DNA from: Escherichia coli
GTDB taxonomy: Bacteria > Pseudomonadota > Gammaproteobacteria > Enterobacterales > Enterobacteriaceae
Assembly (NCBI RefSeq): GCF_002854065.1
Contig: NZ_CP024150.1
Length of the DNA: 64,000 bases
Direction: 5' to 3' (one strand)
Shown here: positions 13,374 to 15,699 of the stretch, one piece after another
Numbering within the stretch: the first letter of the stretch is position 1
Layout of the letters: every line of letters begins with the position of its first letter
Program-made: the position numbers

Positions 13374-15699
13374 TCACAATGATAATGATTCGTCGTTTGC
13401 TGTTATGCACTGATTAGAAAATAATTGTGAGTCAGTTCGTAATTGCATAATTTAAAACGTCTTTCTCCTACCTTTATTGTTTCCGATACTAATGTCCATT
13501 TTCGCAATAAAAGGACATTTAAGATGAATGCACGAAAGGCGGTACTGGCAGATTGTTCTCCAGAATACTCTGTAGGCCGTTAATCGGCCTCTCAATTGGG
13601 CCTTCACCCAGCGCATCGATGACACTCAGCATCTGCGTGGATTTCAGATCGTCCTAGGCCTCGCGTGGCTTGTGTCCTTTTCCGCCGCCTTTTCACATGA
13701 TGATTCTTTTTAATTGATATGATTAATCACAACAATAGTCACATCACATGAGTTTTACGCGATATCATCAAAATGCTGTTTGTTTTCTTGCAACCAGAAA
13801 ACTCAATCTGTTAACAGGATTAATAAGGGGTTTTATGAAATGTAACGTAATTGGTGCTATTGCAATTTTGGCAGCATCATCATGTGGATACGCAGCTACA
13901 AAAGAGGTCCCTATGAACCTTGTGAATTCTGATGGTAAAGAACTGCCTATTGGGAAAATAACTATCCAGGAAACCTTATATGGTCTGCTGTTCACACCAG
14001 AACTTCATTCTTTACCTGAAGGCATTCATGGATTCCACGTTCACGAAAATGGAAGCTGTGCCCCGGTGCTAAAAGACGGAAAACCTGTTGCAGCATTATC
14101 GGCTGGAGGTCACTTTGATCCGAAAAAGACCGGGAAACATCTTGGCCCCTGGTCTCCTGATGGTCACCTTGGCGATCTCCCTGCGCTGTACGTGACTAAT
14201 GATGGAAAAGCGAACTACCCGGTACTCGCACCGAAACTAACCGAATTAAAAGATATAAATGGACACTCTCTCATGATCCACATCGGTGGTGACAACCATC
14301 ATGACAATCCAGAACCACTGGGCGGTGGTGGGGCTAGAATTGCCTGCGGCATCATTCCATAATAAATATGGTAAGGAGTATGGCTCCTTACCTTTAATCT
14401 ACCGGATGATGAGTCCGCTCATCCTGTTGAAAAGTATCCTCACTCTTCTTAGACATATCTTACTTACAGGAAAATATGGATATATTCACATTTCTGAAAA
14501 CTGACTGTGGAACTGATAGTTTGTAAGCGGCTCGCCAAAAGCGTATTGATATTTACTGAGAGGTCAGATCAACTTTCCAGGGCAACAGATCGCGTACCCG
14601 TATCGTTAAATAACGGGTTCATGGTGAATTAAATAAACCTGAAAAAACAGTATGGTGAAATTCCGTAATAAAGAAATTGGTCCGGTATTATGCAAAATCC
14701 TCAAGGTGACGGCTGATACTGTTTTCACGGTAACAAGTCACCAGTAATTCATGGGTTGCACGGGTAAACGCCACATAAAGCACCGGAATCACTTCATGCT
14801 CATCCGCTGCACCAGAATGAACGAAAGAAGCATTGATAACTGCAACATACGGAAACTCCAGCCCCTTACTGCTCTGGTACGTCAGTAAATGCACCACATC
14901 CTTGCGTCGCGAGTATGTCTTCTTACTTTCACTGTCAAAGCAGGTGGTAAATGGTATCCCGCGTTGTGTCATAACGTCTTTCAGTTGTTTCACTGAAAAC
15001 TCTGCCGGACACAGAACAGCCATATCACTCCAGTGACCGCACAGGGCATAACGCTTCTCCAGCCATTCTGCAACCTTTCTGGCTTCATCACGTTCAGAAA
15101 CACAACGCAGGATTTTCGGCTCTGTGCCCTCTTCACCGCCCGCCTGTGGCTGAAGGAGTGGTATTTCACGATTCTGATGTTTTTGAAAATACTCGCGGGA
15201 GAATGCATAAGCAAAGTGCAGAATGCATTTCGGATTACGATAATTGACTGGCAGGACAGAAGTACGTCCTTGAGCCTGGATTCCCACACTGGCCAGTGAA
15301 AAGTTCATAGCCCGCTCACGACGGTAAATAGATTGGGCATCATCGTACATCAGGAGTAATGAACGGGATGAATTATCAAATAGACGGGCAATTAGAGCCA
15401 GCCAGCGACTGTCAAAATCATGCCCCTCATCCACCAGTACAGCATCATATCCGGTGCTGGTGATTTTTCCTCTGTTCACAGCCTCTTCCAGTGCGCTGAA
15501 GCATTTCTCCGGGTAATTCTTTCTGTCAGCCGTCACTTGAATAGCGTGGCGTTTTATCATTGAGGCACACCAGCTGTGAAAATGAGATACCGTAACCCGT
15601 GACGACGTCAGCCCTCTGGCTTCAATGCATTCCCGTAGATAGCTGGCCAACGTAATGTTGTAACACAGCACCAGAATCTTTCCGGATGTGGTTTCAGCT

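Follow-up and report, generated by a model that had tools for sequence, protein, structure and literature searches.

A prophage-type sodC on F-type plasmids of Escherichia coli, likely transplanted with a slice of a lambdoid tail region

Phage-borne Cu,Zn superoxide dismutases (SODs) of enterobacteria include the enzymes SodC-F1 and SodC-F2 of Escherichia coli O157:H7, encoded by the lambdoid prophages CP-933R/V (D'Orazio et al. 2008, PMC2569942). These enzymes are dimeric, have about three times the activity of the core SodC, withstand proteinase K and EDTA, and are enriched in intracellular bacteria; their expression does not depend on RpoS and occurs in log phase as well as under anaerobic conditions (PMC2569942). 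Signal peptidase I can cut their leader (20/21), which can also serve as a lipobox (AASC, Cys17), and experiments found the protein both soluble and membrane-associated; a fragment of 299 bp upstream of sodC-F served as the promoter in a lacZ fusion, with RpoS-independent expression (data not shown) (PMC2569942). The core SodC of E. coli is monomeric, RpoS-dependent, expressed in stationary phase only and sensitive to proteases and EDTA (PMC2569942). Other relatives are SodCI of the Salmonella phage Gifsy-2 (1EQW) and SodCIII of Fels-1, which are accessory genes ("morons") carried in lambdoid tail regions; a virulence role has been demonstrated only for SodCI. Here, we analyze a gene of this type, sodC at 13835-14362 (plus strand), in a stretch of 64,000 nucleotides of E. 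coli DNA (assembly GCF_002854065.1, contig NZ_CP024150.1), which we call the window. We think it likely that this gene is a working prophage-type periplasmic Cu,Zn-SOD copy, of the SodC-F1/F2 lineage and related to SodCI and SodCIII, that was transplanted on a slice of tail region to F-type plasmids, and that the two IS3 insertion sequences (IS) around it were not the vehicle. Our confidence is high for the identity and origin of the gene and, judging by its characterized homologues, moderate for its function.

An earlier note on this DNA had described an intact sodC with signal peptide and metal ligands, and the gene bears this out. The open reading frame (ORF) runs uninterrupted from an ATG at 13835 to a TAA at 14360-14362, 175 codons plus the stop, as in SodC-F1/F2, and follows a Shine-Dalgarno sequence (AAGGGG, 13825-13830). 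The product matches Pfam Sod_Cu (PF00080; E=7.8e-32, 110.9 bits vs a cut-off of 28.9) and the NCBIfam SodC equivalog NF007628 (213.3 bits vs a curated cut-off of 165), and its top PDB matches are bacterial Cu,Zn-SODs, namely Salmonella SodCI (1EQW, 2.9e-60) and E. coli SodC (1ESO, 2.1e-54). Alignment with 1EQW and other bacterial enzymes places all the expected residues: the Cu ligands His68, His70 and His149, the bridging His93, and the Zn ligands His102, His111 and Asp114. The disulfide pair Cys75/Cys171 and the catalytic Arg168 are retained as well. Codons 1-20 (13835-13894, plus strand) read as a signal peptide that aligns with the leader of SodC-F1/F2: its core is hydrophobic, the -3/-1 site has small residues (G-Y-A), signal peptidase I is predicted to cut at A20|A21, and there is a lipobox-like motif with Cys17, which is ASSC here and AASC in SodC-F. 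The hydrophobic segments YGLLFTP, HLGPW and YPVLAP are common to this protein and the dimeric SodCI and SodC-F, and in the form YGLLFTP, HLGP(W/Y) and YP(V/L)LAP they are shared with SodCI and SodCIII; the monomeric E. coli SodC has polar residues in their place. The exact protein is found on 118 public contigs.

The sequence of SodC places the gene among phage relatives. Its amino acid identity is 98.9% with an allele on a pAA-like plasmid, 88.6% with the copy of the DS26-1 prophage, 87.4% with a second plasmid allele (WP_086590367), 81.7% with the SodC of the O157 prophages and of an Stx2a phage, 62.1% with Fels-1 SodCIII, 58.9% with Gifsy-2 SodCI and 56.1% with K-12 SodC. The comparison with chromosomal and prophage sodC genes that the earlier note had in mind was made with a neighbor-joining tree (mature region, 200 bootstraps, K-12 SodC as the outgroup). 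It places the plasmid protein, with 86% bootstrap, within the clade of E. coli lambdoid prophages formed by the O157, Stx2a and DS26-1 copies; the gene is thus related to the prophage sodC genes that the earlier note mentioned. At the DNA level, matches to the locus were present in 695 of the 5,426 complete E. coli genomes; all the contexts that we inspected were prophage, and the core sodC locus is absent among the listed matches. Hence, as judged from sequence, the plasmid gene belongs to the lambdoid-prophage SodC clade and is distinct from the core sodC of E. coli (b1646, 1ESO). With the core enzyme and Salmonella SodCII it shares the fold, the ligands and the periplasmic location; the core gene differs in belonging to the chromosomal backbone.

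These data also bear on the least favored interpretation, that the gene is an assembly artefact or a core chromosomal sodC co-assembled with a plasmid. Nothing beyond the general possibility, raised in the earlier note as what would undo its claim, speaks for it. Against it, the 961 bp tested are carried at at least 98.8% identity by 11 RefSeq E. coli plasmid records, closed circular ones included, and the core K-12 protein is only 56% identical. We regard an artefact as extremely improbable, and the gene as plasmid-borne. One of the complete circular plasmids, NZ_AP027791.1 (IncFIA/IncFII, 109.8 kb, human isolate), is 99.99-100% identical to the window over 1-50312 and 99.7% identical over 51874-64000, and its RefSeq annotation has sodC at identical coordinates. 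The intervening 50313-51873 (about 1.5 kb) has no long (>3 kb) alignment to this plasmid, whose record has ISApl1 near there. With this gap and the lower identity of the last 12 kb, the window must derive from a sister plasmid and not from NZ_AP027791.1 itself.

What surrounds the gene is the most direct evidence on its origin. A block of ~970 bp (13553-14522) consists of a gpJ stub, an intergenic region, sodC, a terminator and a spacer. Of the 961 bp at 13554-14514, positions 1-957 align with E. coli prophages (about 78% identity), and "phage attachment tail tip protein J" is annotated beneath the upstream part of the prophage match. The stub (13553-13698, minus strand) is the dead 5' end of a lambdoid tail-tip gene J, about 48-52 codons long. 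It was identified by tblastn with gpJ N termini (69-71% identity over 52 amino acids, E about 1e-23), and the nucleotide match to prophages starts at its edge, at 13553. It reads M*KGGGKGHKPREA*DDLKSTQMLSVIDALGEGPIE..., with stops at codons 2 and 15. Between the stub and sodC lies the prophage-derived intergenic region (13699-13834, plus strand), presumed to hold the promoter. Downstream, a terminator scan revealed an intrinsic-terminator-like hairpin (14370-14392, plus strand; a 10-bp stem followed by TTTAATCT) 8 nucleotides past the sodC stop. It lies in a spacer (14363-14522) that blastn assigns to part of the region between sodC and the tail-assembly gene I. The blastn match to a prophage (L014) reaches 14510, with further similarity at 11 of 19 positions (hand count) towards an IS66 tip at 14523. 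No remnant of gene I was found 3' of sodC by tblastn with protein I, and the block ends within the sodC-I spacer. An Rfam scan of the window gave no RNA family in or beside the block.

This arrangement is that of a phage tail. The native order, with I, then sodC on the opposite strand, then J, is found in the DS26-1 and O157 prophages, the Stx2a phage, Fels-1 and IMG/VR contigs; in Gifsy-2, sodCI lies elsewhere in the tail, with gpL on one side and the Lom/gpM genes on the other. The gpJ stub of the plasmid block has the correct phage position and orientation, and the rest of the phage is absent. Because of the prophage alignment, the gpJ stub, the phage gene order and the downstream phage homology, the plasmid can be said to carry ~970 bp sliced from the tail region of a lambdoid phage, a point that the earlier note had missed. 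The present site is a derived location with a tail-module scar and not a prophage. Compared with O157 SodC-F, the plasmid gene thus keeps a homologous upstream region and the same order relative to gpJ, but it is carried by conjugative or mobilizable plasmids instead of an intact prophage tail operon, next to a dead gpJ stub, without gene I and with flanks of the IS66 family. The divergence at synonymous sites (dS) between the two is about 0.75.

The block also retains what may be needed for expression. The homologous DNA kept upstream amounts to 281 bp, with about 78% nucleotide identity to the O157 SodC-F region. The mean column identity across the aligned plasmid and prophage copies is about 80% in the intergenic region. 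Within it, the block 13759-13768 (GCGATATCAT) does not vary, and its positions 13763-13768 form a -10-like TATCAT. We infer that sodC brought its own promoter from the prophage. It would then be transcribed from this promoter independently of RpoS, as described for SodC-F. The protein would be exported by Sec and either cut by signal peptidase I (A20|A21), giving a soluble form, or processed at Cys17, giving a lipid-anchored one. A fate of the leader as lipoprotein only was considered and set aside: the leader has an intact signal peptidase I site, both fractions contain SodC-F1, and a sister plasmid allele has Tyr17. By analogy with the O157 enzymes, its closest characterized homologues, the plasmid SodC is probably dimeric, RpoS-independent and soluble or lipid-anchored in the periplasm. 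Folded as a stable dimer, it could dismutate periplasmic superoxide that comes from outside, e.g., from the oxidative burst of the host, and shield targets in the envelope. From this periplasmic function it would follow that a recipient of the plasmid gains a phage-type SOD without lysogeny. A role of the plasmid gene in host adaptation, which the earlier note had suggested, is plausible in the light of these homologues.

This reading should be taken with caution, since several observations weigh against it. The activity, export, oligomeric state and expression of the plasmid SodC are all deduced from its 82% identity to SodC-F1. A strict sigma-70 scan of 13400-14700 gave zero promoter matches. 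The ratio of nonsynonymous to synonymous changes (dN/dS) is low (0.09-0.13 vs prophage alleles), but it mostly records the history before the capture by the plasmid, and the two plasmid alleles of the same type differ by 2 synonymous and 2 nonsynonymous changes, which gives no statistical power. The capture itself is reconstructed and not observed, because no donor prophage closer than about 84-85% in nucleotide sequence was found in complete E. coli genomes (the best match in IMG/VR is at about 83-84%). Finally, the junction to the left of the block is not a clean transposition junction, and the IS66 fragments at its borders could be later insertions, not agents of transfer.

Some of these points would also suit a rival account, in which sodC is a hitch-hiking, nonfunctional or silent remnant, a dead piece of prophage among IS debris that brings no benefit to the host. 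The neighborhood is an IS-rich patchwork, where the gene adjoins the decayed stub of gpJ and IS66 fragments that are truncated; no consensus promoter was detected, and the expression of the plasmid copy is deduced by analogy. Still, the decay does not extend to sodC: there are two stops in the ~50 codons of the stub and none in the 175 of sodC, whose catalytic residues are all in place. The Shine-Dalgarno sequence, the invariant upstream block and the terminator have all been kept, the exact protein and the 961-bp block recur in the many contigs and plasmid records counted above, and several independent plasmid lineages hold phage-type sodC alleles. By its dN/dS against prophage alleles, the sodC lineage has evidently been under purifying selection, while the adjacent gpJ stub decayed. 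We find a silent remnant unlikely and favor a working, transplanted gene.

How could the slice have reached a plasmid? Both its borders are with IS66-family elements. On the left, local blastn against the IS66 elements of two other plasmids, L005 (CP057526.1) and L006 (NZ_CP128933.1), identified a 115-bp left-end (IRL) fragment at 13439-13553 (plus strand; 92-94% identity), which holds the first ~10 codons of tnpA (MNARKAVLAD). The gpJ stub is joined to it at about nucleotide 115, an internal position of the IS, and by its sequence this is a junction of deletion or recombination and not of transposition. On the right, a 78-bp right-end (IRR) fragment of ISCro1, also of the IS66 family, lies at 14523-14600 (minus strand), with about 95% identity to the ISCro1 ends in L005, L006 and L007. 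Its tip, GTAAGCGGCTCG at 14523, directly adjoins the prophage spacer and the fragment is cut at 14600, so that this junction looks like a true, transposition-type insertion. The left fragment occurs with the identical end base (...GGCAGAT) in L005 at 3990-4104. This is an unrelated IncI-gamma/K1 plasmid without sodC, and the fragment there adjoins an intact ISCro1. Either a deletion of the sodC block or a recombination at ISCro1 may lie behind that copy. We propose that IS66-family elements may have inserted beside the sodC moron in a prophage, that IS-mediated recombination or deletion could then have carried the piece onto a plasmid, and that recombination between plasmids would later have spread it. 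The two inverted IS3 copies would have arrived afterwards, in one lineage.

This order of events differs from that implied by the earlier note, which saw sodC as cargo bracketed by IS3. Literally, the gene does sit just inside an IS3 pair. The left copy (1258 bp, flanks AGT/ACT), which is also annotated in RefSeq, lies at 11873-13130 (plus strand), and the right one (1260 bp, inverted, flanks ACT/GTA) at 24480-25739 (minus strand); sodC starts 705 bp inside the former. One could hence propose a composite transposon, in which the pair moved sodC onto the plasmid as its cargo. The two copies are about 99.7% identical (2 substitutions and 2 one-base indels) and bracket 11.3 kb including sodC, and five sister plasmids from human and pig isolates keep this bracket at the identical site. 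Transposition of such a unit is at odds with several observations. Neither IS3 copy has a 3-bp target duplication (AGT|IS3|ACT and ACT|IS3|GTA), nor does the outer pair (AGT vs GTA). The bracket is seen at one site in one plasmid lineage only, and the sodC module occurs without adjacent IS3, at 99.3% identity, in pAA-like plasmids. The right copy truncates an ecxA-like gene, and because the 5' two-thirds of this gene are absent from the window, we view this copy as the result of an insertion plus a deletion and not as part of an arriving unit. An inversion between the copies was tried as an explanation and accounts for one of the two flank pairs, since only AGT vs the reverse complement of ACT fits (chance about 1/64) and the other pair fails; re-joining the flanks restores neither a DUF2913 pseudogene nor the ecxA-like gene. 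The immediate borders of the sodC block are of the IS66 family, and the mobilization by IS3 implied by the earlier note is not supported. We consider a composite transposon very unlikely and the presence of the IS3 pair near sodC probably incidental. Besides sodC, the bracket holds ~ten other genes, including those for a helicase, a DUF6710 protein, a RelE/ParE-NadS pair, a resolvase and dqlB, as well as hypothetical genes.

The transplanted slice belongs to a larger unit that better describes its present mobility. A module at 13460-16595, in which the sodC block lies between the IS66 and ISCro1 fragments and a helicase gene follows, is shared by unrelated plasmid backbones. The pAA-like plasmid NZ_CP135651.1 has it at 99.3% identity over 3,137 bp, flanked by psiB and an ISL3 element. 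That plasmid has genes for an AraC-type helix-turn-helix regulator, an ANR-family regulator, an ABC transporter and TolC-family proteins, a gene set that suggests a plasmid of enteroaggregative E. coli (EAEC; pAA-type). The helicase gene (14688-16478, minus strand) is convergent with sodC and encodes a NERD plus UvrD-type protein (Pfam NERD, UvrD-helicase and UvrD_C). It matches, over its full length, the PADLOC model C3a187 "NERD+UvrD" (1.7e-141), a candidate anti-phage defense system, and it co-travels with sodC in the 3.1-kb module on the two plasmid backbones. The isolates behind the plasmid records with the sodC block are human or porcine (China, Thailand).

Other plasmids carry other phage-type sodC alleles. 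Like the present one, they belong to F-family plasmids and mostly have IS66-family elements and virulence-associated genes as neighbors; they differ in sequence (80-87% amino acid identity, 59% for one in Salmonella) and in their junctions. The second allele WP_086590367, at about 85% nucleotide identity, is found on a pO157-like plasmid with stcE and type II secretion genes and on an IncF plasmid encoding an extended-spectrum beta-lactamase. It has intact IS66 elements on both sides of sodC. The tip of one lies immediately beside the start codon of J, so that in the pO157-like case almost no gpJ is left, and there are two different IRR positions. In L006 (8136-8663) and L007 this allele has Tyr, not Cys, at leader position 17; since it thus lacks a lipobox, its product could only be soluble. 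Further alleles occur on F plasmids of E. albertii, E. coli SCU-111 and Salmonella. In PLSDB, 108 of the 72,556 plasmids encode any homologue, 27 of them with at least 80% amino acid identity. Given these counts and the several alleles, plasmid-borne phage-type sodC appears to be rare but recurrent. Because the alleles differ by dS of about 0.6 and have different junctions, it probably had multiple origins. We tentatively suggest, as a possibility that is on balance doubtful, that phage-type sodC morons have repeatedly escaped from lambdoid tails to F-family virulence plasmids with IS66-family elements as recurrent neighbors, and that one of them was here fused with the candidate anti-phage NERD-UvrD helicase in a module that hops between backbones. 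If this were true, an IS66-mediated flow of morons from phages to plasmids could be a general route by which fitness genes are separated from lysogeny.

Phage-type Cu,Zn-SODs are known or suspected to contribute to fitness and virulence; SodCI does so in Salmonella, and SodC-F1/F2 are candidates in O157. A copy on a plasmid allows the trait to spread by conjugation to strains without such a prophage, and the plasmids that have sodC here also encode EcxAB toxin, or a type IVb pilus, or determinants of EAEC (pAA-type). If the repeated escape suggested above were true, the plasmid copy would measurably raise resistance to the oxidative burst or gut colonization in EAEC-like and EcxAB-carrying strains. 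The enzyme family, the biology of phage morons and the properties of SodC-F and SodCI were already known, and the gene is annotated as sodC in RefSeq plasmids. Because of this annotation and because its likely function can be predicted from characterized homologues, little follows in practice. The new points are modest: the plasmid gene can be recognized as part of a tail-region slice that was transplanted and bears a gpJ scar, it is associated with the IS66 family, and it moves in the 3.1-kb module with a candidate defense helicase. The gpJ stub is unusually direct sequence evidence for the movement of an accessory gene from phage to plasmid. We found no publication that describes these plasmids and strains or an E. 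coli plasmid with a phage-type sodC, which is weak evidence of novelty since full-text coverage was incomplete.

The wider plasmid context is less intimate than the earlier note had it when it placed sodC next to pilus and toxin genes. Both kinds of genes exist, but the wording was loose: the type IVb pilus cluster starts past the right IS3, more than 12 kb off, and the "toxins" nearby are toxin-antitoxin components of the RelE/ParE and DinQ-like kinds and an ecxAB-like copy that is dead. The latter, at 25740-26369 just outside the right IS3, is a degenerate second copy of the operon for the EcxAB metalloprotease AB5 toxin. It consists of an ecxA-like 3' end cut by IS3 (about amino acids 211-285 aligned, 77% identical) and of a gene for a cholera-toxin-like B subunit (25995-26369; 72% identical) with an internal stop. 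An intact ecxAB is found elsewhere on NZ_AP027791.1, at 83486-84768, outside the window. Its A subunit matches EcxA (PDB 4L63) at 3.2e-176 and is labeled "hypothetical protein" in RefSeq.

Within the IS3 bracket, the gene dqlB for a DinQ-like type I toxin is accompanied by a match to the Rfam AgrB antisense RNA (21759-21854, minus strand, and 22180-22267, plus strand; 61.5 bits for AgrB vs a gathering score of 40). A 35-nucleotide direct repeat lies nearby, at 21931-21965 and 22177-22211, 246 bp apart. By its sequence, this region looks like a type I toxin-antitoxin locus of the dinQ/agrB type.

The edge of another cargo appears at the start of the window (1-2032). It belongs to a complete-looking cluster for myo-inositol catabolism on NZ_AP027791.1 (48279-62481), with iolBCDEG, an mmsA-like dehydrogenase, a sugar ABC transporter and a MurR/RpiR regulator, which is unusual for an E. 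coli F-type plasmid. The backbone of the plasmid is also composite in content. Window 7756-9030 and the annotations of NZ_AP027791.1 give two relaxases (MOBF traI and MOBP), and the plasmid has two umuD (one with an adjacent annotated Y-family polymerase), two ardA and a psiA, IncFII and IncFIA replicons, and an IncI-like type IVb pilus cluster at about 27,800-41,000 of the window. With this gene content, it seems that two backbones have fused in the plasmid.

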